A DNA stretch of 32,000 nt from Nitrosomonas europaea. GTDB lineage: Bacteria; Pseudomonadota; Gammaproteobacteria; Burkholderiales; Nitrosomonadaceae. A program made the translations under genes and the position numbers. Position 1 is the stretch's first letter; each line of letters begins with the position of its first letter. Location of the stretch: positions 1 to 32,000 of the forward strand of contig NZ_FUWK01000025.1 in NCBI RefSeq assembly GCF_900167395.1, given 5' to 3'. Below are positions 1 through 32,000 of this stretch, piece after piece. Under the pieces are notes generated by a model. That model had not been told where the DNA came from. It saw only the letters and a list, made by a program, of their open reading frames with translations, and ran no database searches.

Positions 1-245
1 AAAACATCGAATATCTTTTCCCAAATACCGGCCTGTGCCCACCGCGTAAAGCGTTTGTGAGCAGTTTTCCATTTGCCATACCGCTCCGGCAGGTCATGCC
101 AGTGCGCGCCGGAGCGTAAAACCCATAAAACACCATTTATGAACAATAGATTATCAGCACCATGTCGGCCACGATCCCCAATTTTCCCCGGTATAAACGG
201 CTCTATTCGACACCATTGCTCCCTGTTCAATTCATAGCGTTTCAT
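1..245 (-). CDS. IS5-family (IS427/IS1031-like) transposase, N-terminal part, truncated by the window edge
   Basis: Hand translation of the complement from the ATG at 245-243 gives MKRYELNREQWCRIEPFIPGKIGDRGRHGADNLLFINGVLWVLRSGAHWHDLPERYGKWKTAHKRFTRWAQAGIWEKIFDV. This is the conserved N-terminal region of IS5-family transposases (WxxIxPxxP...GRxxxxxRxxxNGxLWVLRxGxxWxDLPxxYGxWxTxxxRFxRW). It is absent from the ORF track because it runs off the window. Confidence 0.8.
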   Translation of the reverse strand, partial: MKRYELNREQWCRIEPFIPGKIGDRGRHGADNLLFINGVLWVLRSGAHWHDLPERYGKWKTAHKRFTRWAQAGIWEKIFDV

Positions 246-296
246 ACATTCCTCACTGAAAATGTTAGACCTCTTTCAGTAAAGCAAAAATTATAG
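1..296 (-). mobile_element. One end of an IS5-family insertion sequence (partial; the rest lies beyond the window start)
   Basis: The transposase gene reads toward the window start. A 51-nt non-coding tip (246-296) contains a 7-bp inverted repeat, ACTGAAA (255-261) / TTTCAGT (274-280). The adjacent flippase frame is closed by an in-frame TAG at 294-296, so the IS/host junction is placed near 296. The exact terminal repeat cannot be defined without the other IS end. Confidence 0.6.
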
Positions 297-764
297 ATGT
301 TGAGAATCCGTAAATGTCGATTTGTCCTAGGAACAATTCTAAGTAATGTTTTCTTGCCACATTTATCCAGAAATCTGGAAGATCATCCTGTTTATATGAA
401 AATAATGATGATTTCTGGACTTATGCTGACTCTGGGGATAGCTATTTTCTCTGACGCGATTTCCAGTATTCTTTTTTCTGGTAATTCGGACGAGATATCC
501 ACGTATATGCGGATTTTATCCTTGTGGATAATCTTCATTTTTATCAGAAATGCAACCGGGGCTAATTACCTGATGTTGGTTGGGAGAGAGCATATTTACA
601 AAAATATCGTTCTCTATACTTCGGTCACATCTGCGGTGGTAGGAGTTTATTTAATTCAAAAATACCAAGCCTATGGAGCGATATCTGTAGTAGTTGGCTC
701 ATCATTCATAATGGCTGTGCTGACCTACTGGTATTACGTTCAAGCTTTAGATAATAAAAGATGA
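297..764 (+). pseudogene. C-terminal fragment (about 155 aa) of a Wzx-type MOP-family polysaccharide flippase, apparently truncated by the IS
   Basis: About four hydrophobic helices plus the motif ...VFLPHLSRN... typical of the last third of Wzx/polysaccharide-biosynthesis proteins, which are normally about 400-480 aa. An in-frame stop lies directly upstream (294-296). The stop overlaps the next gene start (ATGA at 761-764). Confidence 0.55.
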
Positions 765-1906
765 TCAGCTTAATTTTTTGTGGAGATTACGCGCCTTGTC
801 GAAGATTTGAGGCAATCGTACTTGAAAGAGGTAGTGCCATACTTGGAAATGCTGCGATTGAAATAAAGACAGCAGATTTCTCATTTGTCAATCTCGAGTG
901 CCCCCTGACTGATCATCAGGTAGCTATCAATAAATCCGGCCCGGCACTAAGAGCAGGCCCTCAATGTGCGAGTGGGATTGCAGATTTCACTGTTGCAGGC
1001 CTTGCCAATAACCATAGTTTGGATTATGGGGTTCAAGGGTTGATTGATACTATCACCGCATGCCGATCTGTTGGAGTGTCGACGGTTGGTGCAGGAATTA
1101 ATCTTGCTGAAGCACAGAAAATCCATATATCTAAGGTTAAGGGAAAGAAACTTGCCGTCATTGCTGTTGCTGAGCATGAGTTTAACCAATCCGAGAATAA
1201 TGGCCCAGGTAGTGCACCACTAGATCCTGTTGATAATTATTATCAAATACGAGAAGCTCAAGCCAAGGCAGATATTGTTATTGTCACAATACATGGCGGC
1301 AATGAGCATTTTCACTATCCAAGACCTGGTTTAAGAAAACTGTGCAAGCATTACATTGACTTAGGCGTAAATGCGGTTATCTGCCATCATCCACACGTAC
1401 CAGGTGCTTATGAAATATATAACGGGAGACCTATTGTCTATTCTTTGGGTAATTTTGTTTTTGACACGTTATCTATGGTTCATGAATGGGATGTCGGATA
1501 CATGGCAAAACTTAAGTTCAATGAAGTGGATTGTACGTTTGAGGCGATAGAAATTATTCCCTATAGACAATCGATCACAGTTGAGGGTGTTGAGTTGTTG
1601 AGAGGAGATGAGCGTGATAAAGCTGTTTCCAAAATTGAAGCATTAAGAAATGCCGTGCAAGAAAATGAGGTGTGGCTAAATGAATGGAATTCTTTTGTAA
1701 AGCAGCGAACACATAATTACCTTCTAAGACAGTTTTTCCCTTTTATTTTTCCTGGAGCAGGAAGATTAGCCAGAAATATTCCAATAATAAAATTATTTTT
1801 TAATAGAAAAAATTCTCTTGCAAAATTGAATTTGATTAGGTGTCAATCACATCGAGAGGTGCTTATATCAGTTATTCAGGCAGAATCTCCCCGTCGAGAG
1901 TTATAA
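761..1906 (+). CDS. CapA/PGA_cap-family metallophosphatase-fold protein (poly-gamma-glutamate capsule CapA/PgsA-like)
   Basis: 381 aa. Motifs FCGDYAP, GLANNHSLDYG, HGGNEH, ICHHPHV and SLGNFVFD match the CapA family pattern. The start overlaps the previous stop (ATGA). Confidence 0.7.
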   Translation: MISLIFCGDYAPCRRFEAIVLERGSAILGNAAIEIKTADFSFVNLECPLTDHQVAINKSGPALRAGPQCASGIADFTVAGLANNHSLDYGVQGLIDTITACRSVGVSTVGAGINLAEAQKIHISKVKGKKLAVIAVAEHEFNQSENNGPGSAPLDPVDNYYQIREAQAKADIVIVTIHGGNEHFHYPRPGLRKLCKHYIDLGVNAVICHHPHVPGAYEIYNGRPIVYSLGNFVFDTLSMVHEWDVGYMAKLKFNEVDCTFEAIEIIPYRQSITVEGVELLRGDERDKAVSKIEALRNAVQENEVWLNEWNSFVKQRTHNYLLRQFFPFIFPGAGRLARNIPIIKLFFNRKNSLAKLNLIRCQSHREVLISVIQAESPRREL

Positions 1907-1965
1907 ATAAGTAGGGTATTTTTCGTGGGAAATAAAAGTGAAAAATTTTTAATTTAGGGGTAAAT

Positions 1966-3000
1966 ATGAGCCCTAAAGCAGCCATACATAACCGATCAGG
2001 GAGCTTCAGCGATCGCTGGATAGCGTATTGCCAGCAAAGAAATATTCCATACAAAACAGTTGATTGCCATTCATCCGATATCATTGAAGAACTGGCTGAT
2101 TGTTCGTTTCTGATGTGGAACTGGAGCCAGACCTATGCCGAAGATATGTTGATCGCACGCGGTTTGATCAAAGCTGTGGAGTCGATGGGAATCCGGGTTT
2201 TCCCGAATTCTGAAACCTGTTGGCATTTTGACGACAAGGTAGCACAGAAATACCTGATGGAAGCTTTAGGGGTTCCCATGGTTAAGAGTTATGTTTTTCT
2301 TGATCGAGCCAGGGCGCTGGAGTGGGCCAGGAAAACGGAATATCCAAAGGTTTTTAAATTGAGAGGGGGGGCTGGAAGCAGCAATGTTTTTCTGGTGAAC
2401 GATATAAACAAAGCAGAAAGGCTTATTAATAAAGCTTTTTCAACCGGTTTTCCACCGGTTTCACGCTGGAATGCCCTGAGTGAGCGCTGGTGGCAGTTTA
2501 AAAGAGACAAGACTTTTATTTCTTTTTTCAATATCTCCAGAGGGATCTTTCGTGCACTGATTAAGAACCCTACCCTTGAACGTTTGCCAGTTCAAAGAAA
2601 TTATGCCTATTTCCAGGATTTTGTTCCTGATAACGATTCCGATATTCGTGTAATAGCCATAGGAAAAAGGGCATTTGGTATCAAAAGGATGGTACGTGAA
2701 GGGGATTTCAGAGCATCCGGAAGTGGAAAAATTCTGTATGACCCGGAATTGATTCCCGAAGCTTGTATCAGGATGACATTTGATCTGGCAAAAAAAACCA
2801 GATCGCAATCTCTTGTTCTGGACTTTATTTTTTCTGATGGTAGCCCGTTGGTTGTAGAGATGAGTTATGCATTTGCATCTCACGGTTATTTATCCTGTCC
2901 CGGTTACTGGAGAAATGACATGACGTGGGTAGAGGGAAGTTTCCATCCTGAAGATTTCATGGTGGATGATCTGATCGTGTCTTCGGTAGAGAGGAGCTGA
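1966..3000 (+). CDS. ATP-grasp-fold ligase-like protein
   Basis: 344 aa. The layout DDKVAQKYLMEALGVP...YPKVFKLRGGAGSSNVFLV...DIRVIAIG...FRASGSG...LVLDFIF...VVEMS resembles RimK/ATP-grasp enzymes. The stop TGA (2998-3000) overlaps the ATG of the next gene (3000-3002). Confidence 0.5.
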   Translation: MSPKAAIHNRSGSFSDRWIAYCQQRNIPYKTVDCHSSDIIEELADCSFLMWNWSQTYAEDMLIARGLIKAVESMGIRVFPNSETCWHFDDKVAQKYLMEALGVPMVKSYVFLDRARALEWARKTEYPKVFKLRGGAGSSNVFLVNDINKAERLINKAFSTGFPPVSRWNALSERWWQFKRDKTFISFFNISRGIFRALIKNPTLERLPVQRNYAYFQDFVPDNDSDIRVIAIGKRAFGIKRMVREGDFRASGSGKILYDPELIPEACIRMTFDLAKKTRSQSLVLDFIFSDGSPLVVEMSYAFASHGYLSCPGYWRNDMTWVEGSFHPEDFMVDDLIVSSVERS

Positions 3001-4100
3001 TGCATATCGCCATATACCTTCCATCTCTGCGTGGTGGTGGCGCTGAGCGGGCTATGGCTACACTGGCCAATGGTTTTGCCGATCGAGGGTTGAAGGTGGA
3101 TCTGGTACTGGTCCGTGCTGAGGGCCCTTATCTTTCTGAAGTTTCACCCGGCGTGCGTATCGTGGATTTGCAGTCCAATCGGGTACTGACTAGTTTGCCT
3201 GGCTTGGTACGATACTTGCGCCGGGAGCGACCTCAAGCGATGCTATCCGCGCTCAATCATGCCAATGTGATTGCTGTCGTGGCGAGAATGCTGGCTGGAG
3301 TGCCTGCCCGTCTGGTAGTGAGCGAACGTAACAATGTTTCATTATCCGGCAGCTCTTCAAAAAATTTGCGTTCGCGTGTGGTGTTACACATGATGCGATG
3401 GGCCTATCGTAAAACAGATGGGGTGACGGCAGTATCCGGAGGTGTAGCGGATGATCTGGCAAATGCCATCAACCTGCCGCGTGATCGGATATCTGTAATT
3501 TTCAACCCGGTGGTAACACCAGAATTGATCGAAAAATCCAGGATGCCGCTGGAACATCCTTGGCTGGGAGAGGGTAAACCCCCTGTTATTCTGGGCGTAG
3601 GAAGGCTTACACCACAAAAAGATTTTTCTACTCTGATCCATGCTTTTGCCCAAGTACGTACTGTGCGTGACTGCCGTCTTGTAATCCTGGGAGAAGGAGA
3701 GTTGCGTGCGGAGCTGGAACAGCTGGTAGCGTCCCTTGGAGTACAGGATAGCGTCCAGCTTCCGGGGTTTGCTGATAACCCTTTCGCATGGATGAGCCGT
3801 GTGCGGTTGTTTGTGCTGTCTTCCAGATGGGAGGGGTTGCCAAATGTACTGATTCAGGCAATGGCTTGTGGTACTGCTGTTGTGAGTACTGATTGCCCGA
3901 GTGGACCGGATGAGATTCTGGAAGGGGGGAAGTGGGGAAGGTTGGTACCGGTGGGGGATGAAGAGGCATTGGCAGAGGCAATGGTTACCTTACTGGGAAT
4001 GCCAGAAAATCAATTGTCTGATGTACGTCAGCGTGCTGGTGGTTTTAGACCGGAACTGGCCGTAGATGCTTACCTAAAAATACTGAGGAGTATGCGCTGA
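3000..4100 (+). CDS. Glycosyltransferase, GT4 family (Glycos_transf_1)
   Basis: 366 aa. N-terminal YLPSLRGGGAERA and C-terminal SSRWEGLPNVLIQAMACGTAVVSTD fit a GT-B retaining glycosyltransferase. The usual E-x7-E motif reads E-x7-Q here. Confidence 0.8.
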   Translation: MHIAIYLPSLRGGGAERAMATLANGFADRGLKVDLVLVRAEGPYLSEVSPGVRIVDLQSNRVLTSLPGLVRYLRRERPQAMLSALNHANVIAVVARMLAGVPARLVVSERNNVSLSGSSSKNLRSRVVLHMMRWAYRKTDGVTAVSGGVADDLANAINLPRDRISVIFNPVVTPELIEKSRMPLEHPWLGEGKPPVILGVGRLTPQKDFSTLIHAFAQVRTVRDCRLVILGEGELRAELEQLVASLGVQDSVQLPGFADNPFAWMSRVRLFVLSSRWEGLPNVLIQAMACGTAVVSTDCPSGPDEILEGGKWGRLVPVGDEEALAEAMVTLLGMPENQLSDVRQRAGGFRPELAVDAYLKILRSMR

Positions 4101-4157
4101 TATCTAGTTGTTGGGGTACTGGCGGATGGTTTTCTGAGAGTATTAAGCAGAAATAAA

Positions 4158-5150
4158 GTGAAAACCACAATAGACAGAGCAACATTTAATGCCATTGCAG
4201 TTCTGGGGTTCGTTACAGTTATTATTTCAGTGCCATGGGAGGAAATTTTTCGCGCTGTCAATGGCTATGGATTTGTTGATAAGGGAGTTTATTCAGAATA
4301 TTTTCTTTATAAAACCAGTGTTCTTGACTATAAAGAATTTAGTGGGGTTTTGAGCTATGTTTCGAATGAATTTCTGTGGCATTACGCAATAGGTTGGTTG
4401 GTCAACAATACCGGCATCCTGATCGATCATGTGTTTCTGGCAATTTCTTTTATTACGTTGCTGATTTTTGGGTTGTTATTGGCAAAATGGCAGAGTATTT
4501 ACGCACTTCCCTTGCTTGTAAATCCACTAGTCATTGATTTTGCTTTTTCGCAGTACCGGCTTGCGCTGGCGATATCGATTCTGGGCGCGGCCTATCTGTT
4601 GCATGGGCGATACAGAGCAATTCCTTTTGCTTTGGTGCTGACTTCTTTATTCATACATTCTGGAACAACATTGTTCATTCTGATATATGCAGCGGTCTGG
4701 TTGGCTCAATGGCTTTCTATACGTTTCCGGATAGGCTGTTCGACAGTGTTTGCCATACTCTTTGCTGTTGGTGCCTTCATATCACTTTTGATTGGTCCGT
4801 TACGTGAGGCTCTGCTATCGGCGATAGAGGATCGCCGTGCTGAATACCACGATATGTCCAGCTCTTTGTTGTACTCCTTGTTCTGGATAGCTTTGCTTAT
4901 TCCCTTTTATTTAGGTCGTCGATATTTAGTGACATTAGATTATGCACGTTATGCGCTGGTAATCGTTTCTATCGTTTTCGTGAATGTATTTCATGGCGGA
5001 TATTCAACAAGATTTCTGGCTGCTGCATTTCCAGGTCTTGTTTCTGCAGTTTTAAGTTTGCACGGCGTAATAAAAATAATGATTTTAGTCCTGTTTATTG
5101 TCTATGCTGTGTTTCAATGGTTGTATTGGCTCCGCATATTGAGTGGTTAA
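4158..5150 (+). CDS. Polytopic membrane protein, putative Wzy/EpsG-like polysaccharide polymerase
   Basis: 330 aa with about 9-10 hydrophobic segments. It is AT-rich compared with the flanking glycosyltransferase genes and sits between them, as wzy genes usually do. GTG start. No sequence motif was recognised with certainty. Confidence 0.45.
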   Translation: MKTTIDRATFNAIAVLGFVTVIISVPWEEIFRAVNGYGFVDKGVYSEYFLYKTSVLDYKEFSGVLSYVSNEFLWHYAIGWLVNNTGILIDHVFLAISFITLLIFGLLLAKWQSIYALPLLVNPLVIDFAFSQYRLALAISILGAAYLLHGRYRAIPFALVLTSLFIHSGTTLFILIYAAVWLAQWLSIRFRIGCSTVFAILFAVGAFISLLIGPLREALLSAIEDRRAEYHDMSSSLLYSLFWIALLIPFYLGRRYLVTLDYARYALVIVSIVFVNVFHGGYSTRFLAAAFPGLVSAVLSLHGVIKIMILVLFIVYAVFQWLYWLRILSG

Positions 5151-6271
5151 TGGAAACTGTTCATATTATCTCTGGCCTTAACGATGGCGGTGCGGAGGCG
5201 GTTCTGTACCGTTTGTGCAGCAGTGATAAAGCAGCAGAACATTATGTCATTTCATTGATGGATGAGGGTAAATATGGTGCTTTGTTGCGTGAGGCCGGGG
5301 TGCAGGTATCTTGTCTGAGCATGCCACGGGGCAGAGTCACGTTAGGTGGCCTGTGGCGATTGTGGCGATTGCTGCGTCAGATTCGTCCGCAAGCAGTGCA
5401 GACGTGGATGTATCACGCTGATCTGGTTGGTGGATTGATTGCCCGTCTGGCTGGAGTAAAACAAGTGTTTTGGGGAATCCACCATACCACGCTGCATGCT
5501 GGGCAATCTAGACGTTCTACAATTTGGGTCGCCAGATTATGTGCTCGTATCAGTTCCTGCCTGCCTTCAGCCATCATCTGCTGCGCGCAGAAAGCCCTGG
5601 AAGCACATCGTGAGCTGGGTTATGCAGCAGAAAAATTACGAGTGATTCCCAATGGTTACGATCTGGTTCGTTTTCGTGTCGATGAAGATGCGCGTGTACG
5701 GTTGCGTACAGAATGGAATACAGGTAGCCGCTGGCTGATCGGTATGGTAGGGCGGTTTGATCCACTGAAAGACCATAAAAATCTGCTGGATGCATTGGCG
5801 ATTGTTAAGTACCGTGGCGTGGATTTTTGCTGTGTGTTGGCTGGCCGTGGCCTGGATCAGAATAATGCGCAGTTGATGGCCTGGCTGACAGAGCTGGATC
5901 TGGCTGGTGAAGTGAAGCTATTGGGGCAGCGCATGGATATACCTGATGTGATGAATGCGCTGGATGTGCATGTGCTATCCAGTTCCAGTGAAGCATTTCC
6001 CAATGTAGTAGCTGAAGCCATGGCCTGTGGAACATCAGTAGTAACGACGAATGTAGGTGATGCTGCTCTGATTGTTGGTGAGACCGGTTGGGTAGTCCCA
6101 GCCAGAAATCCGGGAATGCTTGCTGATGCTCTGTTGCAGGCGTATGTAGCCATGCATGATGAGGCGGCCTGGCAGGTGCGCTGTACTGCTGTACGGCAGC
6201 GGGTGGAAGATCATTTCAGTCTGGAGCGCATGGTCGAAAATTATCATCTTGTCTGGCAAAATAAATTGTAG
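5150..6271 (+). CDS. Glycosyltransferase, GT4 family
   Basis: The start was moved to the ATG at 5150 (METVHIISGLNDGGAE...), which overlaps the previous TAA by 1 nt. C-terminal SSSEAFPNVVAEAMACGTSVVTTNVGD contains a canonical E-x7-E motif. Confidence 0.8.
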   Translation: METVHIISGLNDGGAEAVLYRLCSSDKAAEHYVISLMDEGKYGALLREAGVQVSCLSMPRGRVTLGGLWRLWRLLRQIRPQAVQTWMYHADLVGGLIARLAGVKQVFWGIHHTTLHAGQSRRSTIWVARLCARISSCLPSAIICCAQKALEAHRELGYAAEKLRVIPNGYDLVRFRVDEDARVRLRTEWNTGSRWLIGMVGRFDPLKDHKNLLDALAIVKYRGVDFCCVLAGRGLDQNNAQLMAWLTELDLAGEVKLLGQRMDIPDVMNALDVHVLSSSSEAFPNVVAEAMACGTSVVTTNVGDAALIVGETGWVVPARNPGMLADALLQAYVAMHDEAAWQVRCTAVRQRVEDHFSLERMVENYHLVWQNKL

Positions 6272-6272
6272 C

Positions 6273-7415
6273 TTGGATAAAAAAGTCATCATCGCACTCA
6301 ATGCTGCATGGAATCTGGTGAATTTTCGTGCGAATCTGATTCGTGGTTTGGCCGCTGCGGGATATGAGGTGGTGGCAATTGCGCCGCCGGATGAGTATGC
6401 GCCACGATTGGCGGAGTTGGGCTGCCGCTATGTACCGCTATCGATGGATAATAAGGGGACGCACCCAGGGCGGGATCTACTGCTTTTCTGGCGTTTTCTG
6501 CAACTGTTGCGTAAAGAAAAACCGGCAGTCTATCTGGGGTATACAGTCAAACCGAATATTTATGGTTCACTGGCAGCTCATTTGCTGGGTGTACCGGTAA
6601 TCAACAACATTGCCGGGCTGGGGGCGGTATTTATCCAGGAAGGGTGGCTGACCCGTCTGGTACAAAGATTGTATCGTGTGGCTTTATCACGCTCAGCAAA
6701 GGTATTTTTTCAGAATAATGTGGACAGAGCCCTGTTTGTTTCAAAAAATCTGGTATCGGATGTAGTTACTGATCGCTTGCCGGGTTCAGGTATCGATCTC
6801 AACCGTTTTGTACCCGTACCTCTGCCCGATAAGACCCCTTTACGCTTTCTGCTGATTGCGCGCATGTTGTGGGATAAGGGGGTGGGTGAATTTGTTGAGG
6901 CAGCGCGTATTCTGAAAAAACAGGGGGTGAATGCGGAATTTTGCCTGCTGGGTTTTCTGGATGTACAAAACCCGACAGCCATTTCACGCCAGCAGATGGA
7001 TGAATGGATAGCAGAGGGAGTCATTCGCTATCTGGGAGTGAGTGATAACGTGGCGGAAGAAATTGCGCTGGCTGATTGCGTTGTCTTGCCTTCCTATCGG
7101 GAGGGTATTCCCCGTACTCTGCTCGAAGCAGCAGCGATGGCGCGTCCCATTGTAGCAGCGGATGCTGTCGGTTGCCGTGATGTCGTTGATGACAGTATCA
7201 ATGGTTATTTGTGCAGACCGCGGGATGCTACTGATCTTGCTGATAAAATTTCCAGAATAGTTGCGTTATCCTGCATTGAGCGTACAGCTATGGGATTGCA
7301 CGGCAGAGAAAAGATGGAGCGAGAATTTGATGAGCGGATCGTGATCGATAAATATCTGCGGGCGATCGAGGAAATATTGAATCGCCCGGAACCATCACCA
7401 TCAGGACAGTCCTGA
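6273..7415 (+). CDS. Glycosyltransferase, GT4 family (WbuB/Glyco_trans_4-like N-terminus)
   Basis: The likely TTG start at 6273 lies directly after the previous stop (6269-6271) and gives LDKKVIIALNAAWNLVNFRANLIRGL.... C-terminal PSYREGIPRTLLEAAAMARPIVAADAVG contains an E-x7-E motif. The longer track ORF (from 6156) overlaps the upstream gene. Confidence 0.75.
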   Translation: MDKKVIIALNAAWNLVNFRANLIRGLAAAGYEVVAIAPPDEYAPRLAELGCRYVPLSMDNKGTHPGRDLLLFWRFLQLLRKEKPAVYLGYTVKPNIYGSLAAHLLGVPVINNIAGLGAVFIQEGWLTRLVQRLYRVALSRSAKVFFQNNVDRALFVSKNLVSDVVTDRLPGSGIDLNRFVPVPLPDKTPLRFLLIARMLWDKGVGEFVEAARILKKQGVNAEFCLLGFLDVQNPTAISRQQMDEWIAEGVIRYLGVSDNVAEEIALADCVVLPSYREGIPRTLLEAAAMARPIVAADAVGCRDVVDDSINGYLCRPRDATDLADKISRIVALSCIERTAMGLHGREKMEREFDERIVIDKYLRAIEEILNRPEPSPSGQS

Positions 7416-7495: not shown

Positions 7496-8263
7496 TCAGA
7501 CAGGCAAGGCTGCAGGGGTTTTGCGCCTTTGTGCTGCGCCCATCCCTAAAATCCCCAGACCGATCAACGCAATCGTAGCTGGCTCTGGTATCGCACTGAG
7601 TGCTACGGTGAGTGAAAAGTTGACAGGACTGGTGGGAAGTGGCTGTTCTGGGCCAAACAAAATTAGTGCGAGCCCATTTAGATCATCTTTTGACCAGGCT
7701 TCGAATTCGCCAGTAGCATAGGCGGGTGTAGACCCGGGGCCAGGCGTAAGATTGCTTAGTGTGTAATTCCATGAAGCTTCAACCGTTGTTCCTGGTGGTG
7801 CTGGTGGCGTTGGTATTGTTGCTGTGAAGGAACCATTTGTATTGGCCAGTACAGCGGTGACAAATGCATAAGCTGTATTCCATAACGGGTCGGATTGCAG
7901 ATCAGCCAGTGTGGCAAATGACTTTGATCGTGTGTCATAAAATGAAATAACTGGATTGTCAGGGGGGGCTTCTGCATACAGGGAAACAGAGGCCTGATAG
8001 GCATAGGCTGCCGGGTTGCTGATCCCGGAAAGGGTATTGCTAAATGTAAATGACCCAGTGGCGTATTCTTTGGCCCCGGCAGCATCTGGTGAGCCATCGC
8101 TTATTCCACAACCTGTCGCACCATTGGCACCATAGGAAAAACAACCACCAGTTATGTCCAGTACCATCGAGCCAGCTACACCAGCCTGGGCGGGTGTTAT
8201 TGATAGTCCTAAAATGATTCCTGTTATCGCAACACCATGTTTGATCCCGGATTTAAAGTCCAT
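7496..8263 (-). CDS. PEP-CTERM domain secreted protein (predicted exosortase substrate)
   Basis: 255 aa. N-terminal signal peptide (...ITGIILGLSITPAQA). The body is rich in Thr, Ser, Ala, Gly and Pro. The C-terminus IPEPATIALIGLGILGMGAAQRRK carries the PEP motif, a TM helix and a basic cluster. Confidence 0.85.
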   Translation of the reverse strand: MDFKSGIKHGVAITGIILGLSITPAQAGVAGSMVLDITGGCFSYGANGATGCGISDGSPDAAGAKEYATGSFTFSNTLSGISNPAAYAYQASVSLYAEAPPDNPVISFYDTRSKSFATLADLQSDPLWNTAYAFVTAVLANTNGSFTATIPTPPAPPGTTVEASWNYTLSNLTPGPGSTPAYATGEFEAWSKDDLNGLALILFGPEQPLPTSPVNFSLTVALSAIPEPATIALIGLGILGMGAAQRRKTPAALPV

Positions 8264-24467: not shown

Positions 24468-24953
24468 ATGCCTTCATTCGATATTGTTTCCGAAGTGGAT
24501 AAGCAGGAAATTCGTAATGCGGTCGATCAACTGAACAAGGAAGTTTCCACCCGGTTTGATTTCAAGGGTTCGGATGCCCGTGCCGAGCAAACTGATTATG
24601 AACTTTATCTTTACGCGGATGATGAGTTCAAACTTGGCCAGGTCATGGATATTCTGATGACTAAATTTACTAAACGCGAGATTGATGTTCGCTGCCTGGA
24701 AAAGGGCCAGACCGAAAAAATCAGTGGCAATAAGGTGAAGCAGAAGGTAACAGTTAAGACCGGGGTGGAAAGTGATCTCGCTAAAAAGATCATCAAACTG
24801 GTCAAGGACAGTAAACTTAAAGTCCAGGCGAGCATCCAGGGTGAGGTAGTGCGGGTAACCGGCGCCAAGCGCGATATCCTGCAGGAGGCCATTCAACTGG
24901 TAAAAGGCAGCATCACTGAGCTGCCGCTGCAGTTTCGCAACTTTCGGGATTGA
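24468..24953 (+). CDS. yajQ: YajQ-family (UPF0234) nucleotide / cyclic-di-GMP-binding protein
   Basis: 161 aa. The N-terminus [21 protein letters not shown]...RFDFKG and overall length match the YajQ family. Confidence 0.9.
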
Positions 24954-24984
24954 ACGAGGGTTCCATCAAAACAATTTCAGGATA

Positions 24985-25051
24985 TGATCCCGGGCAACTT
25001 CACAGTAATCGGTGAATTGAGCGCCTGTACTGTGGTGATGCCCGGGTGATC
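24985..25051. terminator. Extended imperfect palindrome between convergent yajQ and the porin gene (possible bidirectional terminator)
   Basis: Outer arms TGATC-CCGGGCA (24985-24996) / TGCCCGG-GT-GATCA (25039-25052) share an 8-bp CCCGGGCA core. Inner arms are CACAGTA (25001-25007) / TACTGTG (25028-25034). There are no clear U-tracts. Confidence 0.3.
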
Positions 25052-25062
25052 AGCGGTTTATA

Positions 25063-26562
25063 TCAGTAATTCCACTGTAACTGGAATCTCAGGACATCAG
25101 CCTTGTATCGTTCGTAAGGGGCACTTGCTACATTGGTACGATTCATCATGTGATAAACCGCTGTAAGCTCAATTTCTTTCATAACCTGCCATTCCAGTCC
25201 AAATTCCAGATCATTAACGTGATTTCTCGGGGCGTTGCGCTCGAATTTCTGACCACCCTTGAAGTGTTGCCATTTAACGAACGGGAACAGCGTTCCCCAG
25301 CGTAATCCATCGATTTTGTAGGTTGCCAGAACATAACCACCATTGAGCGAGGATTCAGTAAGCATCGTCTGGCCGTCATTTAACTGAGGCCCCCGCCCCC
25401 AGTTCCATTCTGCCTGCAGCCCGAAGGGTTGCGGATAAAGTACGGCATGCACCCCGACACGCTCATCTTTGAAACCTTTCTCGGGTGCATCCATGACCGG
25501 AGTAAATCCGCCTGCAGGGCCTGTTGATGGAACGAAGCGTCCACGTAGAGCTTGTATACCTGCTTCAAGAATTTGACCGTTGCTGAATTGGTGTGGGTAG
25601 GTGAAGCGGGTGACCATGTGCACACCGTTATTTCCTTCGAGGCGGTTGGCACCCTGTCCATTGTAGATACCAAAGGCGAACATGCCATAATCACCGGATC
25701 CTTTCAGATTCTTCGCCATGACTTCTTTGAACCGGTCGCGTATATGAGTCGGAGCCCAGTAGAAGAATGCACCGATGTCACGCTCATCCCGACAGCAACT
25801 GTTCATGGCATCATTACGGTCAAGTGCAAGGCGATTTTGGCTGGATTGCAGGTTCTCAAAACTATAAGGGATTTTTGATTGCCCGACCCTGACCCGGAAT
25901 TCCTTGTTCTTATCGAAGTGGATATCGGCGTAGGCATCCCTTAACTGAGCGAAATGGCCTGTACTGGAGCCAGACGGAGTGCTGGCAAAGTCGGGTTGTA
26001 TATACAGAGAGAGATGATCGTTGATATCTCCGAAAATGACCAAACGTGCCCGTCTGATCAGGAAGGAACCATCCTCACCTACCGATTTGTCAGGCCAGTA
26101 AGATACTGCATCCTTATCGCCACTCACCGTACTACTGTAGCGGAATTGTGTATAGCCCCGAATGCCGATTCTGTCGTACCACTTTTTTTCTTCTTTGGGT
26201 TTTTCAGCCGAAGGCTCATTGCTGTGTGCAGCGATTTCCTCTGATTTTCTCCGGATATCAGATTCTGCTCCGGATTGGCCCGAATTTTCCTGAAATTTTG
26301 CTTCACCTTGCGCCAGGCCGGTTGTTGTATTGCTGACAGGCTGGCTTGACTCGGTATCTGGCTTGCTTTGAGATTGAACGGGTGACTCTTTTACTTGCTG
26401 GAAAGTACCCAGTTTGATCCTGTTTTTGCCGGGTTCGGTGTAAACCTGTTTGGTAGCTGTGTCTACATACAGGATTAATTCTTGTGCACCGGCTGGAAAG
26501 AAATGGGATGTAACGAGAATTAATCCCAAGCCACATATTGTTAAGTTGAATCTTTTTATCAT
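25063..26562 (-). CDS. Phosphate-selective porin O/P-family outer-membrane porin with an N-terminal extension
   Basis: 499 aa. Signal peptide (...SHFFPAGAQE). The FLIRRARLVIFG motif is characteristic of Porin_O_P, alternating beta-strand patterning follows, and the C-terminus is aromatic (...LQWNY). A GGGAGG Shine-Dalgarno lies upstream. Confidence 0.7.
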   Translation of the reverse strand: MIKRFNLTICGLGLILVTSHFFPAGAQELILYVDTATKQVYTEPGKNRIKLGTFQQVKESPVQSQSKPDTESSQPVSNTTTGLAQGEAKFQENSGQSGAESDIRRKSEEIAAHSNEPSAEKPKEEKKWYDRIGIRGYTQFRYSSTVSGDKDAVSYWPDKSVGEDGSFLIRRARLVIFGDINDHLSLYIQPDFASTPSGSSTGHFAQLRDAYADIHFDKNKEFRVRVGQSKIPYSFENLQSSQNRLALDRNDAMNSCCRDERDIGAFFYWAPTHIRDRFKEVMAKNLKGSGDYGMFAFGIYNGQGANRLEGNNGVHMVTRFTYPHQFSNGQILEAGIQALRGRFVPSTGPAGGFTPVMDAPEKGFKDERVGVHAVLYPQPFGLQAEWNWGRGPQLNDGQTMLTESSLNGGYVLATYKIDGLRWGTLFPFVKWQHFKGGQKFERNAPRNHVNDLEFGLEWQVMKEIELTAVYHMMNRTNVASAPYERYKADVLRFQLQWNY

Positions 26563-26797
26563 TATTACCTGCCTCCCTTTTTAGCAATCCGTTTACTGGA
26601 ATAAATCAGTTGAAACGGGAGGCATTATTTCAATTGCTTATGACACTCTTATTACATGGCAGATACCGGACTGACCGGATCAGAAAGAAGGGGTGTTCTG
26701 AAAAAGAGTGTGGTTGGAGATCGTGGTTAAAATGAAGGTCTTTATTTGGCAGTATGTCAGATGATGCAGCTGGTTCTGGGGTGTATATACTTGTTTC

Positions 26798-27547
26798 CTA
26801 GTGATTTTTCTTTTCTAACTCCGCTTTGATATCTTCTGCGATAGCTTGGTAAAGCGGGCGAAAAATCGGGCGCATATTGCTGATAATACTGTTGATTTCT
26901 ACCATGGATGGGAAACGCAGACCACGATGCTCGACGGGTGCGCCGATGGGTTCCAGTTGCGCACCTAGTCTGCTGAAGTGACTGGCCAGCCGTTCTTCGG
27001 TTAGCATGAAAAGTACTCTGATATCGTGTATGCGTGCCAGTTCGATTGTGCCGATATAAAGACTCAGCGGAATGTAGGGAAAGCGCATCATTGGGCCTGT
27101 ACTAAAATCTTCTTCAGAAATATTGATAGGATGATTCTTTTCACCTTTTCGCCGGCGAAAGGCGGCGATAACAGCAAGACGGGAAACTTCACCAATTTTA
27201 TCTGCCGGTAGTCTGGACGGATCTATGATGGAGCGGTCGAGCGTCTGAGCACAGGTTTTCTCAAAGGGCAAGCGCCTGTCGTTACTGTTTGATGACGGAC
27301 GGATGATACGGGTACAGCCGATGAATGTATCGTTATTGATACTGCGAATTAGAAGATGTAGTGAGTGGGCATCATATTCATCTATCTCAAATCCGTCAGA
27401 TCGTGAAGATTCAAACTGCAAATCTTCGCAATAAACGGAGTGACGGACGCGATAAGCCTCACGCTTCAACTCTTCGGTCAATGCTGGCACGATTTTGAAG
27501 TACTGCCTGAAAGAAGTGCCCAAATGGCTATTTTCCTGGGTAAACAC
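26798..27547 (-). CDS. PEP-CTERM/exosortase system-associated N-acyl amino acid synthase-like acyltransferase (TIGR03694-like; LuxI/GNAT-related)
   Basis: 249 aa. The N-terminal pattern FRQYFKIVPALTEELKREAYRVRHSVYCEDLQFE, followed by EIDEYDAHSLHLL and GEVSRLAV, matches my recollection of this family. The GTG start has no clear Shine-Dalgarno, so the exact start is uncertain. Confidence 0.6.
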   Translation of the reverse strand: MFTQENSHLGTSFRQYFKIVPALTEELKREAYRVRHSVYCEDLQFESSRSDGFEIDEYDAHSLHLLIRSINNDTFIGCTRIIRPSSNSNDRRLPFEKTCAQTLDRSIIDPSRLPADKIGEVSRLAVIAAFRRRKGEKNHPINISEEDFSTGPMMRFPYIPLSLYIGTIELARIHDIRVLFMLTEERLASHFSRLGAQLEPIGAPVEHRGLRFPSMVEINSIISNMRPIFRPLYQAIAEDIKAELEKKNH

Positions 27548-27671
27548 GATCGCGTTCGTCTAATGATTAAAGAATTTTTAGAAATTTAACAGTTAAGACA
27601 GTCAAGTAGAGGAAGCACCTCCTGTTTAAGCTGCCCATGGCTTGATGCTTTGGCTCGATCAGTCTGCCGGT

Positions 27672-28445
27672 TCATTCAAGTCTCTTCAGATAATCCTTGG
27701 TGAATATTTTGTCCGGCAGATCACGCAGTTTCATATCCGAGTAATCAAGTACTGAAACTTCACCTGACTTCAGCGCATCTTCCATGATGATGCGGGTTGG
27801 GCGCATCTCGCCGAGAATGTTGTCAAAATTCTCGTAACGGCTGGTCTTTAGCAATCGACCCGAAACAGAGTAGAACTCTGCTTTATACGGCCTGAAATTG
27901 GATTGATTTACCCATAACAACACTTTCTGGTAAGTGACTGAGCGATCTATACCAGTAAGTTCAAGGACATAGTAGTCTTCATCATCGATTGATTCATTAC
28001 GCAGCAGTTGCGGATGATAGTCACCAGTAAAGTTGGCGCGAGCAATATCACCGTTGGCAACCTGGCCGGTCAGCCGCTGGGAAAGTGATAGCCGTATCGG
28101 CTGCGAAACACTGGGCATGAAAACCCATAAATCACGCCCTTTCATGAGAATTGCCTGACCACGCTCGGATGCAGGCTCGGTAATCATGACGATGCTGTTT
28201 TCGTTACCCTTGGAAAGTACTTGGTAACGATACAGATCTTCTGCGTGATCAGGAGCAGCTGTGCGAATAGCGACATTGACCTGAAAGCTGTCCTGCGGGA
28301 AGCGAATTTCATCCGCTTTTTCCAGTATACTTTGGGCGGTTACGGCAGATTTTTCAGTTTCCACCGGGGATGAAAACGATGTGCCTCCCTGAGCCAGTAG
28401 AAAACAACCTGTTATCAATGAAAGTAATAAGGAATATAAGTTCAT
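27672..28445 (-). CDS. LolA-like outer-membrane lipoprotein-sorting (periplasmic carrier) protein
   Basis: The start was set at the ATG whose complement is 28443-28445 (MNLYSLLLSLITGCFLLAQG...), giving 257 aa with a signal peptide. The block ILMKGRDLWVFMPSVSQPIRLSLSQRLTGQVANGDIAR is typical of the LolA_like family. Confidence 0.65.
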   Translation of the reverse strand: MNLYSLLLSLITGCFLLAQGGTSFSSPVETEKSAVTAQSILEKADEIRFPQDSFQVNVAIRTAAPDHAEDLYRYQVLSKGNENSIVMITEPASERGQAILMKGRDLWVFMPSVSQPIRLSLSQRLTGQVANGDIARANFTGDYHPQLLRNESIDDEDYYVLELTGIDRSVTYQKVLLWVNQSNFRPYKAEFYSVSGRLLKTSRYENFDNILGEMRPTRIIMEDALKSGEVSVLDYSDMKLRDLPDKIFTKDYLKRLE

Positions 28446-28512
28446 ATTCAATCTCCATGAGTAAACTGTCCGGGTTAGACTACCCTGAAATCGTTCGTTC
28501 GGGGCCAGACAA

Positions 28513-29208
28513 GTGAGCAGCATCGTCCGCATTGAAAATGTATTCAAGGAATATACGCTCGGCACAAGCCGGGTTCATGCACTCAAGGATATCAATCTGC
28601 AAATCGGAAATGGGGAGTTTCTAGCCATTGCCGGTCCTTCAGGTAGTGGAAAATCAACATTGCTTAATCTAATCGGTTGTATCGATATTCCGTCTTCCGG
28701 AAAGATTTATATCGATGACCGGGATACTAGCGGGCAAACGCCAGATCAGCTATCAGAACTCAGAGCTAGAACTATCGGCTTTATTTTTCAGACATTTAAT
28801 CTTTTTTCAGTCTTGTCAGCAGAGGAGAATATTGAATACCCTTTGCTGCAATTCAAGGAATTGCGTGCTGCTGAACGCCGTGAGCGGATTGTAAAATTTC
28901 TCGACATTGTCGGGCTGGCCGAGTTTGCCGATCATCGACCTAATCAGTTAAGTGGTGGCCAGCGCCAGCGTGTCGCAATCGCCCGCGCTCTCGCCACCCA
29001 TCCCAAAATCATCCTGGCGGATGAACCAACCGCCAATCTCGATCACAAGACAGGCGAAGGTATTCTGCAATTGATGAAGGACATCAATCGCAACAGTGGT
29101 ACGACTTTCATTTTTTCAACGCATGATGCCAAAGTAATGGCCATGGCGGAGCGTTTGATACGCATCGAAGACGGACAGCTTGTCGGGGAAGATGCCGTTC
29201 ATACCTGA
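28513..29208 (+). CDS. ABC transporter ATP-binding protein, LolD/MacB type
   Basis: 231 aa. Walker A GPSGSGKST, Q-loop, signature LSGGQRQR, Walker B ILADEPT, H-loop STHD. GTG start. Confidence 0.9.
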   Translation: MSSIVRIENVFKEYTLGTSRVHALKDINLQIGNGEFLAIAGPSGSGKSTLLNLIGCIDIPSSGKIYIDDRDTSGQTPDQLSELRARTIGFIFQTFNLFSVLSAEENIEYPLLQFKELRAAERRERIVKFLDIVGLAEFADHRPNQLSGGQRQRVAIARALATHPKIILADEPTANLDHKTGEGILQLMKDINRNSGTTFIFSTHDAKVMAMAERLIRIEDGQLVGEDAVHT

Positions 29209-29219
29209 CCGATGCGACG

Positions 29220-30719
29220 ATGATTCTATACCCCCGTAGCGCTGTACTGGATTGCTTCGGCACGGCGTCTTCGCAAAGACGGGGTGTGGTGGCGCCAGCC
29301 AGTTTTTCACAGATCACAGGGCAGTCAGTCGGAAAAATCGGGGTTCTGTTCCTGTTGCTGATGGTGTTGTGGAGCGCGAATCTCTGCAATTCCTCAGACA
29401 TTACACCACTTTCTGCAAACAGAGCGAACGTCGGGCAGATGGTGCAAGCGTTTACCTTCGATGATTTATTCAAAGAGGATGGCCCCAGTTCCGATCTACC
29501 ACAACGTGTATTCCGGCAAACTTCTTCCTGGCGCGGATTTTCGCAACTGGAATTTGCTGAAACGATTGCCAGCCCCAAACATGCATCAAAACTGCGTTTG
29601 CGTTCTGAACTATCGAATCTTGGCCAGTTGAGCCCAAACGTAAAATGGAAGCTGAGTGCCCGCATCGATTACGATGCAATCTACGATCTGTCTGATTTTT
29701 ATTCGCGTCAGGTACGCCGGGATCAGCGGTTTGAGCTATTTCTGCGGGAAAATTATCTGGATTTTTCGATTGCTGATTTCGATGTCCGTGTAGGTCGCCA
29801 GCATATCGTCTGGGGAGAAATGGTTGGGCTGTTCTTCGCAGATGTCGTTTCCGCCAAGGACATGCGTGAGTTTGTGCTGCCTGATTTCGATATTCTGCGT
29901 ATTCCGCAATGGGCTGTCCGTACTGAGTATTCCAAAAATGACTTTCATGCTGATCTGATCTGGATTCCATTTGCCAGTCTGGATGAGATTGGTCGGCCAG
30001 GGGCTGATTTTTACCCATTCAAGCTCCCCGTTGCTGCACCAGTCAGTTTTTTGAAAGAAGATCGCTCCGGGCGCAACGTCGCTCACTCGAATTATGGAAT
30101 CCGGCTATCCCAGCTGACGAATGGCTGGGATGTCTCTGCATTTTATTATCACAGTCTCGATGCCACCCCTACTTTCCACCGGATCAGCCAGCCCTGGGAA
30201 CCGCTGCTGTTTCAGGCACGCCATGGAGAAATCGACCAGGCGGGCGGGACAGTGACTAAAGACTTGGGATCGGCGGTACTCAAGGGAGAATTCGTTTACA
30301 CGCATGGACGTCGCTTCAACGTGACCCGCCCGACTGCAGCGGATGGTCTGGTACGGCAGGATACTATTGATTATGCACTGGGGCTGGATTTCACACTACC
30401 ATCGGATATCCGGCTGAATTTGCAGTTCTTTCAGCGCGCGTATCTGAATTATGATCGGGATATTTTTCAGGATCGGCTGGAAAACGGGGGCAGCATTTTT
30501 CTGCAGGGAGACTTATGGCGCGATTTTCAGGGGCAGATATTGTTGATCCACAGTTTCAATCGTAATGAATGGATGCTGCGTCCGCGCCTTACCTGGAACT
30601 TCGCCAGAAACTGGAAACTGGCGGCAGGTGCAGATATTTTCAATGGCCCTCCCACTGGACTGTTCGGCCGGTTTGACAGCAGCGATAGAGTATATACCGA
30701 GCTGCGTTTTTCTTTTTAG
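29220..30719 (+). CDS. Outer-membrane beta-barrel protein, DUF1302 / alginate-export-like
   Basis: LRENYLDFSIADFDVRVGRQHIVWGEMVG matches the RxGRQxxxWGE block of these barrels. Alternating strands run throughout, and the C-terminus YTELRFSF is a typical OMP signature. The true start is uncertain because the hydrophobic signal segment only begins near residue 40. Confidence 0.55.
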   Translation: MILYPRSAVLDCFGTASSQRRGVVAPASFSQITGQSVGKIGVLFLLLMVLWSANLCNSSDITPLSANRANVGQMVQAFTFDDLFKEDGPSSDLPQRVFRQTSSWRGFSQLEFAETIASPKHASKLRLRSELSNLGQLSPNVKWKLSARIDYDAIYDLSDFYSRQVRRDQRFELFLRENYLDFSIADFDVRVGRQHIVWGEMVGLFFADVVSAKDMREFVLPDFDILRIPQWAVRTEYSKNDFHADLIWIPFASLDEIGRPGADFYPFKLPVAAPVSFLKEDRSGRNVAHSNYGIRLSQLTNGWDVSAFYYHSLDATPTFHRISQPWEPLLFQARHGEIDQAGGTVTKDLGSAVLKGEFVYTHGRRFNVTRPTAADGLVRQDTIDYALGLDFTLPSDIRLNLQFFQRAYLNYDRDIFQDRLENGGSIFLQGDLWRDFQGQILLIHSFNRNEWMLRPRLTWNFARNWKLAAGADIFNGPPTGLFGRFDSSDRVYTELRFSF

Positions 30720-30755
30720 TTGGTCGTTCTCAAAAAATGTCGGAAAATTTTACAT

Positions 30756-31967
30756 TTATATATTTTGTCGTAAGGCATCAACAACTGGTATACGTGAAAC
30801 ATGCCTGGCCGGCAGTATTGCCGCTAGTACAGTAGCAGTAAAGCCGATGCCTAATGCGAGTAGTAAAACAGACGGTGCGATCTGGATTCGGGCGATATAG
30901 CCAAGATCAGCATTGGGAGGGGGGGGCATGGGGATACCTATGGCGGAAATGGCCGTGGCCAGCAGTACCCCTATCCCGATTCCTAATCCTCCCCCAATCA
31001 ATCCCAGTAAAAGGTTTTCACTGATAATCAGCCGGAATACCTGATGGCTGTCATTACCCAGGGCCATCATCGTGCCGAATTCACCCACGCGCTCGAAAAT
31101 ACTCATATTGACGCTGTTGGCAACGCTGAGCAGTACCATGATCAGGATAATGATCTGCAGCACACCAAATTGCCCTTTATACATTTCCACCGTTTTTTCG
31201 TAAAAATCATTCAGTTCCACCCAGGTTTTGACTTCCAGGTCTGATGGTCCTAATGATTGCTTTAACTGTGCTGCAATCTGATCGGTTTCTTCTGTATGTT
31301 TCAGTGAAATGACGAGTGCGTTGACTCCTTGAGTGCCGAGCAGCTCCTGTGCGGCAGCTAACGGGATTCTGACAGCGCGTGCATCAAAATCGTTGGAAAA
31401 ACTCTGGAAAATACCCGTTACTTGAAAATCCAGACTATTGAGCGCACCATCAAGCGTGTTGACCAGTAATGTCACCGGGTCACCCGGTTTTAATTGCAGT
31501 GCCTGAGCGACACCTTTACCCAGCAAAATGCCGAATGTATCTTCGTCACTTAGCTGTCGTCCTGCGGTAATCTGTACAGAGCTACCCAGTTTCACTTCGT
31601 GTGACGGTTCCACACCCTCACCAATGATCGGCAGATCACTTTTACCATTGTTGAGCAATCCGGAGAAATTGAGCCGTGCCATGACCTGCGCAACTTCAGT
31701 TTCACCAGCAATTTGTTGCCTGATAGTATCGGGCGTATCTATCAGATATTTTTCCGGAGAACGTGAGCCGGCTTCATAGTACCCTTGGCGATAGATTTGC
31801 AGATGTCCACTTTGCGAGTGGATGAGCGCTTCACCCAGTTGAACATAGATATCCTGTACCCATCCACCCGCCAGAATGATACCGGTTACTCCGGCGATAA
31901 CTGCTGCCAGCGTCATCAGCGTATGGGTTTTTTGACGGAGGATATTGCGTAACGCGAGTTTGAACAT
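30756..31967 (-). CDS. ABC transporter permease, FtsX/MacB/LolCE type
   Basis: 403 aa. TM1 (residues about 17-35) is followed by an approximately 230-aa periplasmic domain and then three C-terminal TMs (FtsX domain). N-terminal MFKLALRNILRQK is typical. A GGAGAA Shine-Dalgarno lies upstream. Confidence 0.85.
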   Translation of the reverse strand: MFKLALRNILRQKTHTLMTLAAVIAGVTGIILAGGWVQDIYVQLGEALIHSQSGHLQIYRQGYYEAGSRSPEKYLIDTPDTIRQQIAGETEVAQVMARLNFSGLLNNGKSDLPIIGEGVEPSHEVKLGSSVQITAGRQLSDEDTFGILLGKGVAQALQLKPGDPVTLLVNTLDGALNSLDFQVTGIFQSFSNDFDARAVRIPLAAAQELLGTQGVNALVISLKHTEETDQIAAQLKQSLGPSDLEVKTWVELNDFYEKTVEMYKGQFGVLQIIILIMVLLSVANSVNMSIFERVGEFGTMMALGNDSHQVFRLIISENLLLGLIGGGLGIGIGVLLATAISAIGIPMPPPPNADLGYIARIQIAPSVLLLALGIGFTATVLAAILPARHVSRIPVVDALRQNI

Positions 31968-32000
31968 GATTCTCCGGGGGATATGGGCAAGCAGTTATGT

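Follow-up and report, generated by a model that had tools for sequence, protein, structure and literature searches.

A conserved acyltransferase and Lol-like transport gene set beside a PepA-type gene in Nitrosomonas europaea

A 32,000-nucleotide stretch of Nitrosomonas europaea DNA (contig NZ_FUWK01000025.1, positions 1 to 32,000; hereafter the window) carries near its end five adjacent genes for an acyltransferase, a periplasmic carrier, an ATP-binding cassette (ABC) ATPase, an outer-membrane β-barrel and an inner-membrane permease. We lean towards the view that these five genes make up most of a conserved island that builds and exports an N-acyl-amino-acid-derived lipid. All five open reading frames (ORFs) are found at the coordinates and on the strands given below, and the same calls were made independently on N. 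europaea contigs. Two further genes, numbered along N. europaea locus L087, lie outside the window.

26798..27547 (−): TIGR03694 acyltransferase of 249 amino acids (aa), a cytoplasmic LuxI/FeeM-fold protein of the PEP-CTERM/exosortase-associated N-acyl amino acid synthase family.
27672..28445 (−): LolA_like periplasmic carrier (PF17131/TP_0789-like), identical with NE2245.
28446..28512 (no strand): divergent intergenic region of 67 bp between the LolA-like/acyltransferase unit and the ATPase/barrel unit, given by position only.
28513..29208 (+): ABC ATPase of the DevA/LolD/MacB type (ABC_tran, 121.8 bits).
29220..30719 (+): DUF1302 outer-membrane β-barrel (PF06980, 46.6 bits against a threshold of 23.2) with the C-terminus ELRFSF.
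30756..31967 (−): FtsX/MacB_PCD permease, the proximal of two paralogues (MacB_PCD 73.5 bits, FtsX 61.5 bits).
L087 7863-9065, N. europaea contigs, just past base 32000: second paralogous permease, 400 aa.
L087 6738-7547, outside the window: PepA-family PEP-CTERM gene (158.9 bits against a cut-off of 80), divergent, next to the second permease.

The gene neighbourhood was assessed in relatives of the acyltransferase sampled in one genome per species, giving 80 loci of 47-90% identity, all from Betaproteobacteria. This sample comprises the closest relatives, and distant TIGR03694 members are represented by two plasmid copies. The loci were compared by tblastn and de novo clustering of neighbour genes; recurrent neighbour clusters were annotated, rare neighbours in part, and linkage was scored where transporter genes lie within 10 kb of the acyltransferase gene. 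By this measure, transporter genes accompany the acyltransferase at 57 of the 80 loci: all four transporter families are within reach of 28 acyltransferase genes, and a further 29 have at least one of permease, barrel and carrier. The other loci are either classical XrtA/Prs loci without the module (8/80) or show neither context (15/80, of which 8 are on truncated contigs). The linkage spans three orders and persists down to 47% identity, extending over ammonia oxidisers (Nitrosomonas, Nitrosospira, Nitrosovibrio), Rhodocyclales (Thauera, Azoarcus) and unclassified Burkholderiales. Gene order is shuffled at loci L020, L033, L044, L055 and L072, and because the flanking genes differ in different genera, the unit moves as a block. 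Look-ups seeded with the barrel recovered the same cluster in 3 of 3 cases. A first-pass annotation had proposed that the five genes belong together, and these counts bear it out as a conserved unit and not a random neighbourhood. The gene immediately upstream of the acyltransferase gene, in the same orientation, is the carrier gene at 27 loci and a permease gene at 19 (46/80 in total); co-transcription of the acyltransferase with a transporter gene is probable.

The acyltransferase scores 290.8 bits against TIGR03694 (cut-off 111.95), with residues 11-243 of 249 aligned, in agreement with its assignment to the LuxI/GNAT-related N-acyl amino acid synthases. It is 100% identical to an N. europaea protein and matches the Pfam families Acetyltransf_5, Autoind_synth and FeeM. 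Its AlphaFold2 (AF2) model has a predicted local distance difference test (pLDDT) value of 82, and the top Foldseek matches, LasI, BjaI, RpaI, TofI and FeeM (2G0B), were found at probability 1.0 with target template-modelling (TM) scores of 0.60-0.70, pointing to a LuxI/FeeM-type GNAT fold. The earlier statement that synthases for long-chain N-acyl amino acids lack an assigned physiological role is outdated, as a Methylomonas LW13 mutant of a TIGR03694-type enzyme loses a polysaccharide band and its growth in a gradient system (PMC11072679). Several genomes contain two TIGR03694 paralogues (L025 and L052 in Nitrosospira briensis Nsp8; L015 and L049; L055; L072). In some of these, one copy is found with the transport module and the other elsewhere, and in Azoarcus taiwanensis (L055) a single module is flanked by both paralogues.

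The carrier matches PF17131 (LolA_like) over the entire profile, positions 1-184 of 184, at 176.9 bits (threshold 30). Its sequence is identical to PDB entry 3BUU (E=2.8e-148), deposited as "uncharacterized LolA superfamily protein NE2245", and its description as a LolA-like periplasmic carrier is thereby upheld. The canonical LolA equivalog models are not reached by the carrier, the best being LolA3 (17.9 bits versus 83) and LolA1_Flavo (17.6 versus 100). An N-terminal signal sequence of the ordinary type is present. The signal region also contains a lipobox-like LITGC motif, the cysteine of which occurs in N. europaea and its closest relative (L001) only and is missing from the 34 other carrier homologues among the 36 compared. 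Because this cysteine is not conserved, the carrier probably acts as a soluble shuttle; a membrane-anchored, LolB-like receptor role was rejected, the LITGC cysteine being confined to the N. europaea lineage. The longest carrier ORF (27672-28565) begins at 28565 and would overlap the divergent ATPase gene, which makes the start at 28445 plausible. No convincing match to a sigma-70 or sigma-54 consensus is seen in the 67-bp divergent region, and a search of the window for sigma-54 −24/−12 elements found no match in the intergenic regions of the module. Sigma-70 promoter and terminator scans of 24900-32000 were discarded, as they returned fewer matches than shuffled sequence.

The best NCBIfam models for the ATPase are TIGR02982 DevA (223.6 bits versus 295.8), TIGR02211 LolD (216.6 versus 307.75) and the N-terminal region of MacB (212.4), all sub-equivalog, so that its naming as a LolD/MacB-type ATPase stands at the level of type; the family is found at 35 homologous loci. 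The window permease is, as first described, an FtsX-type permease with a large periplasmic domain, and its closest solved relatives in a PDB sequence search are LolE (65 bits) and LolF. Its score against the lolCE model TIGR02212 is 92.2 versus 362.45, below equivalog level. Scores against the tripartite-exporter models DevC and MacB are 19.9 versus 290 and 42-212 versus 966, respectively. Tandem permease paralogues, 38% identical to each other, occur at 38 loci. They fall into two orthologous groups, with the position label kept by 76 of 76 nearest neighbours, and by this sequence comparison the two-permease duplication is ancient. The module was originally regarded as complete within the window and as Lol/MacB-like. 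It is not complete there, as the second permease lies beyond the end of the window, and, judged from its genes, the pump is a LolC/LolE-like heteromeric extractor and not MacB-like, because it combines two different permeases with a separate ATPase. Among the annotated recurrent neighbour clusters there is no gene for a membrane-fusion adaptor or a TolC-type protein, which argues against a pump of the MacAB-TolC or DevBCA-HgdD type.

The outer-membrane β-barrel proposed for the fourth gene is corroborated by its DUF1302 match, the PF06980 alignment covering residues 136-389 only. The true start of the barrel probably lies inside the ORF, at the signal-like segment KIGVLFLLLMVLWSA. Its AF2 model is rich in strands (pLDDT 57), and Foldseek relates it to 16-strand porins at probability 1.0 and a TM-score of about 0.5; a PDB sequence search returned no solved relative of the barrel. 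Barrel and PF17131 carrier are encoded together at 33-37 loci.

The tie to PEP-CTERM biology suggested in the first-pass annotation also receives substantive support, as PEP-CTERM genes are enriched beside the module. Of the 56 loci with the module, 38 encode PEP-CTERM tails, a density of 4.8 per 100 kb; of the remaining 24, the figure is 5, or 1.3 per 100 kb. At the module-linked loci they lie mostly within 3.5 kb of the module and belong to the PepA, THxN and EDSAP-1 families, and in N. europaea the gene beside the second permease is of the PepA family. PepA is required for flocculation, is RpoN-dependent in Aquincola and is post-translationally processed (PMC9850573). A sigma-54-type −24/−12 element with one mismatch, TGGCACATATCGTGCT, is located at L087 7643-7658 (−), about 96 nt upstream from the pepA start of N. 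europaea. It lies inside the 315-bp divergent region common to pepA and the second permease gene and is the sole one-mismatch match in 21 kb; its position fits the RpoN-dependent expression of pepA in Aquincola. A different client had been suggested in the first-pass annotation, namely the PEP-CTERM protein listed below. This suggestion is not supported: that gene is 19 kb away from the module, behind glgA, pgi, bktB, hslUV, aspS and further housekeeping genes, and the conserved PEP-CTERM neighbour is a different gene.

7496..8263 (−): PEP-CTERM protein (TIGR02595, 21.8 bits against 16), outside the conserved unit.

With all five family assignments holding, the parts fit the cytoplasm-to-outer-membrane route for a hydrophobic product that had been envisaged. 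We postulate that the acyltransferase would condense acyl-ACP (acyl carrier protein) with an amino acid in the cytoplasm. Tailoring may then follow in a lineage-dependent manner, by an FAD oxidase, a ThiF-like protein with a nitroreductase, a GT1 glycosyltransferase, a methyltransferase, or an acyl-AMP ligase with a reductase, before the lipid enters the inner membrane. From the outer leaflet of that membrane, the LolCDE-like heteromeric ABC extractor would pull the lipid by ATP-driven mechanotransmission and pass it to the LolA_like (NE2245-type) carrier, which would cross the periplasm. Docking of the carrier on the DUF1302 barrel could result in insertion of the lipid into the outer membrane or its release at the cell surface. 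There, the lipid may act together with PepA-type PEP-CTERM proteins and exopolysaccharide in matrix and floc formation.

Remote relatives of the carrier (25-34% identity) bear on the cargo class. They are encoded in collinear cassettes of an ABC ATPase, one FtsX permease, the LolA_like protein and an unannotated protein of about 450 aa, located inside clusters of the polyketide synthase (PKS) or fatty acid synthase (FAS) type in the E. coli O157:H7 EDL933 island, Paraburkholderia ginsengisoli, Burkholderia gladioli, Aliiroseovarius and Burkholderia sp. FERM BP-3421. As these cassettes are embedded in PKS/FAS clusters, the analogy argues that the general cargo class would be a small-molecule lipid made next door. 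They share with the N. europaea module the four-part logic and the carrier family. They differ in having one permease instead of two and a collinear order, and in that neither a TIGR03694 acyltransferase nor a PEP-CTERM gene is annotated alongside. A relationship of their last, ~450-aa protein to DUF1302 is not demonstrable (best BLASTP E=0.007, no Pfam match). To our knowledge, such single-permease ABC-FtsX-LolA_like-barrel cassettes are uncharacterised. The E. coli island (L081, NZ_CP124742.1, 142215-160961) lies beside ycdU and an integrase gene and encodes an ACP, an aminomethyltransferase-family protein, two ketosynthases and a malonyltransferase. Its exporter part consists of an ABC ATPase, an FtsX permease, a LolA_like protein and a 462-aa unannotated protein. 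The island is apparently an uncharacterised lipid cluster with its own Lol-like exporter.

Among known systems, LolCDE-LolA-LolB of E. coli has the same two FtsX-type permeases with MacB_PCD, separate ATPase and soluble LolA-superfamily carrier. The subunits described here, however, stay well short of the Lol equivalog cut-offs, the carrier is a PF17131 and not a LolA-family protein, and the outer-membrane partner is a ~450-aa DUF1302 barrel instead of the lipoprotein LolB. The genes here are tied to a lipid-making enzyme, whereas those of E. coli serve housekeeping lipoprotein sorting. A lipid biosynthesis cluster with a Lol-like route of its own, comprising chaperone, inner-membrane transporter and outer-membrane receptor, is also seen in the aryl polyene cluster of E. 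coli CFT073, where LolA-like, resistance-nodulation-division (RND) and LolB-like genes (ApeL/ApeM/ApeN) are proposed to place the lipid in the outer membrane (PMC8253772). The Ape cluster employs an RND transporter and a DUF3261 LolB-like protein in place of the two-permease ABC extractor and DUF1302 barrel, and its product is a polyene, where an N-acyl amino acid would be the product here.

DUF1302 barrels are elsewhere paired with LolA-superfamily DUF1329 proteins and RND pumps (PMC6394551), and a DUF1302-DUF1329 barrel-carrier complex is predicted with an interface predicted TM-score (ipTM) of 0.84 (PMC13499233). The DUF1302/DUF1329/BNR/RND systems AmeABCD (Castellaniella) and PP_0765-0766 (P. 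putida) combine, as here, a barrel, a LolA-superfamily protein and an inner-membrane transporter for hydrophobic compounds. They use a DUF1329 carrier and a proton-driven RND pump, in contrast to PF17131 with an ABC ATPase and FtsX permeases, and have no biosynthetic enzyme attached. The heterocyst glycolipid exporter DevBCA-HgdD and MacAB-TolC share the FtsX/MacB-type ABC machinery expelling a lipid or glycolipid, DevA being the best NCBIfam match of the window ATPase, but rely on a membrane-fusion adaptor and a TolC-type duct where this module has a soluble carrier and a dedicated barrel. The TIGR03694 enzymes of XrtA/PEP-CTERM loci have the same family and fold; their gene is part of the XrtA operon, while the one described here stands outside it, together with a transport module and a PepA-type gene. 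The Fee cluster (FeeM) has in common with the island that tailoring enzymes accompany the synthase.

Several observations weigh against a dedicated lipid-export island. The ATPase and both permeases score below every equivalog cut-off, and their functions are assigned purely by analogy. The barrel model, being of low confidence, supports a porin-like β-barrel only, not a strand count or a plug. In Rhodocyclales, only permeases are adjacent, with carrier, ATPase and barrel often more than 10 kb off or not found. Acyltransferases in XrtA operons form their own clade without the module and have xrtA/epsI, FemAB-family, stp1, stp2, amidotransferase and prsK/R/T genes as neighbours; the known genomic tie to PEP-CTERM systems is directly visible at L028, L032, L037-L039, L041 and L043. 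The two distant plasmid-borne TIGR03694 members have neither the module nor an XrtA locus. The linkage of synthase and transporter is lineage-restricted, and because it is missing from the XrtA clade and the distant members, the enzyme can do without this route in some cases. For DUF1302/DUF1329 systems, a role in uptake or catabolism has been proposed as well. We infer the product, the transport direction and the hand-over steps by analogy with the Lol and MacB systems; the cargo and any role as exosortase acceptor are putative. N-acyl amino acid production by TIGR03694 enzymes is taken from heterologous expression reportedly achieved by Craig et al. in 2011.

The cargo could instead be a protein. 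An exosortase would cleave a PepA-type PEP-CTERM protein and join its new C-terminus to an amine-bearing lipid from the acyltransferase and its tailoring enzymes, and the LolCDE-like pump, the carrier and the barrel would expose the C-terminally lipid-anchored product on the surface. This would account for the PEP-CTERM genes within a few kilobases of the module (38/56 versus 5/24 loci), for the PepA equivalog standing divergently beside the second permease in N. europaea and for the two-permease architecture, which is that of the lipoprotein extractor LolCDE, while the PKS-cluster cassettes have one permease. The sister acyltransferases inside XrtA operons with FemAB and amidotransferase genes, and the post-translational processing of PepA (PMC9850573), point the same way. 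We nevertheless regard a protein cargo as unlikely. The literature searched reports no lipid adduct on PEP-CTERM proteins, and an ordinary N-acyl amino acid, unless built on Lys or Orn, offers no free amine as a nucleophile. The neighbouring glycosyltransferase, methyltransferase and oxidase genes resemble small-molecule tailoring, related cassettes sit in clusters without a PEP-CTERM gene, and 18 of the 56 module loci have no PEP-CTERM gene within reach. The stronger version, in which the module is a second, dedicated Lol pathway for exosortase-made, C-terminally lipid-anchored PepA-type proteins, seems to us quite improbable; if true, it would identify the long-sought exosortase acceptor and a new class of bacterial lipoproteins.

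The co-orientation of the acyltransferase gene with a carrier or permease gene at 46 of 80 loci, and the movement of the unit between different genomic flanks, also bear on whether the transporter operates inward, or serves general efflux or housekeeping, handling hydrophobic compounds such as fatty esters, solvents or membrane lipids, and is linked to the acyltransferase via shared regulation of matrix and exopolysaccharide only. Both features disagree with such a role, as does the repeated presence of the same cassette type in biosynthetic and not catabolic clusters. In its favour, DUF1302, DUF1329 and RND genes have fitness phenotypes on Tween 20, fatty esters and monoterpenes that were read as catabolic or efflux functions, and sub-equivalog scores for ATPase and permeases mean that direction and substrate are not fixed by family. 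MacB/Lol-type (type VII) ABC systems are not known to act other than as outward extractors, which further counts against uptake, and we hold this explanation to be rather doubtful.

A diffusible product, that is, a signal or surfactant resembling an N-acyl-homoserine lactone (AHL) and secreted by the module to the medium with no role in the outer membrane or matrix, would be in keeping with the AHL synthases as closest solved folds of the acyltransferase. It would also be in keeping with the surface-active and antibacterial properties of long-chain N-acyl amino acids of this enzyme class (PMC4897644). It is hard to reconcile with the recurrent neighbours, which include surface-matrix proteins but no LuxR-type receptor gene, with the fact that AHL-type signals require no dedicated trans-envelope carrier, or with the loss of a polysaccharide band as the sole mutant phenotype (PMC11072679), and strikes us as very doubtful. 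Chance or lineage-specific adjacency without function, for which the porin, yajQ, wecB and GMP/PMI synteny merely inherited within the N. europaea group could be cited, deserves next to no credence and is excluded on the comparative sequence evidence of 57/80 loci in three orders, with rearranged order, unrelated flanks and the 3/3 barrel-seeded look-ups.

Nothing else in the window puts the module within an exosortase locus, and no exosortase gene was seen in the 32-kb window or the 21-kb N. europaea contig stretch. Bases 1-7415 contain GT4 glycosyltransferase genes. Ahead of these, 761-3000 (+) encodes a 381-aa protein with a weak MslH-type epimerase match, whose 84 bits fall far short of the cut-off, together with an ATP-grasp RimK-like ligase scoring 54 bits; the pair may provide an amino-acid-ligating modification step of the exopolysaccharide cluster. 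The PEP-CTERM gene at 7496-8263 is followed by about 15 kb of housekeeping genes (glgA, pgi, bktB, hslUV, gmk and aspS) and then by GMP/PMI, wecB, yajQ and the porin O/P gene, directly before the acyltransferase gene. The last two, for a YajQ-family cyclic-di-GMP-binding protein and a phosphate-selective porin O/P, occupy 24468-26562, between wecB and GMP/PMI on one side and the acyltransferase gene on the other. Synteny of porin, yajQ, wecB and GMP/PMI is common only to the N. europaea/eutropha/halophila group, and the porin O/P gene, downstream of the acyltransferase gene, was rejected as a sixth member of the module, being present in 7 Nitrosomonas loci only.

Past base 32000, the order in N. 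europaea is a 205-aa coiled-coil membrane protein, the second permease and the divergent PepA-family gene. Farther on are genes for a FAD_binding_4 oxidase, a 356-aa protein, an AMP-binding enzyme, a NAD_binding_4 reductase and a fatty-acid desaturase.

L087 9315-9932 (+): 205-aa protein between the permease genes, with a signal or transmembrane segment and a second transmembrane segment.
L087 91-5911 (−): accessory set next to the module, also at L045, L059, L070 and L071.

The 205-aa protein has Q/F-rich heptad-like repeats (DQRF...), matches no family and occurs only in the N. europaea/halophila lineage (L087, L001 and L005). In the accessory set, the 356-aa protein combines CxxC...CxxC with an SGGKDS PP-loop and has no Pfam match, the AMP-binding enzyme has 615 aa, and the desaturase is an addition in N. 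europaea. This recurrent set resembles a fatty acyl-AMP ligase/reductase branch that would supply the same lipid. In one N. europaea genome, a Y1_Tnp (IS200-type) transposase gene is located between pepA and the FAD oxidase gene (L089 6026-6469, −); in other N. europaea contigs, this position is taken by a short unannotated ORF.

Accessories in other lineages are either the pairing of a ThiF-family protein and an Acg/Rv1355c-type nitroreductase, or a GT1 glycosyltransferase, a methyltransferase or, at 8 loci, a second FeeM-type synthase. The ThiF-family protein (PRK08223, 447 bits) and the nitroreductase-fold protein (clusters c11 and c20) pair up with the module at L012, L020, L024, L033, L066, L090, L092 and other loci. 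Both are tied to N-acyl amino acid chemistry by NCBIfam PRK14852, in which FeeM, ThiF and nitroreductase domains are naturally fused; adenylation of the N-acyl amino acid carboxylate is one possibility.

Each part of this picture is already known or named: the enzyme family with its link to PEP-CTERM, the carrier through its crystal structure, DUF1302, and the Lol-like routes of lipid clusters. The genomic link of N-acyl amino acid synthases to PEP-CTERM/exosortase systems was reportedly noted by Craig et al. in 2011. A literature search, with most subscription journals outside its reach, returned no paper joining PEP-CTERM, acyltransferase, LolA and ABC transporter, or LolA-like, FtsX and gene cluster. 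What appears to be new is that the synthase is joined, in a conserved union, to a two-permease ABC extractor, a PF17131 carrier, a DUF1302 barrel and a PepA-type gene.

The island joins a synthase, a complete-looking lipid route from the inner to the outer membrane, tailoring enzymes and a PepA-type flocculation gene. It offers a handle on two questions, the role of the synthase in PEP-CTERM/exosortase bacteria and the molecule that receives exosortase substrates, and with the carrier crystal structure 3BUU already at hand, binding tests are straightforward. The organisms concerned are relevant to floc formation in wastewater and to nitrification. In general, bacteria appear to reuse the ABC-FtsX-LolA_like-barrel cassette as an uncharacterised exporter of lipid natural products.

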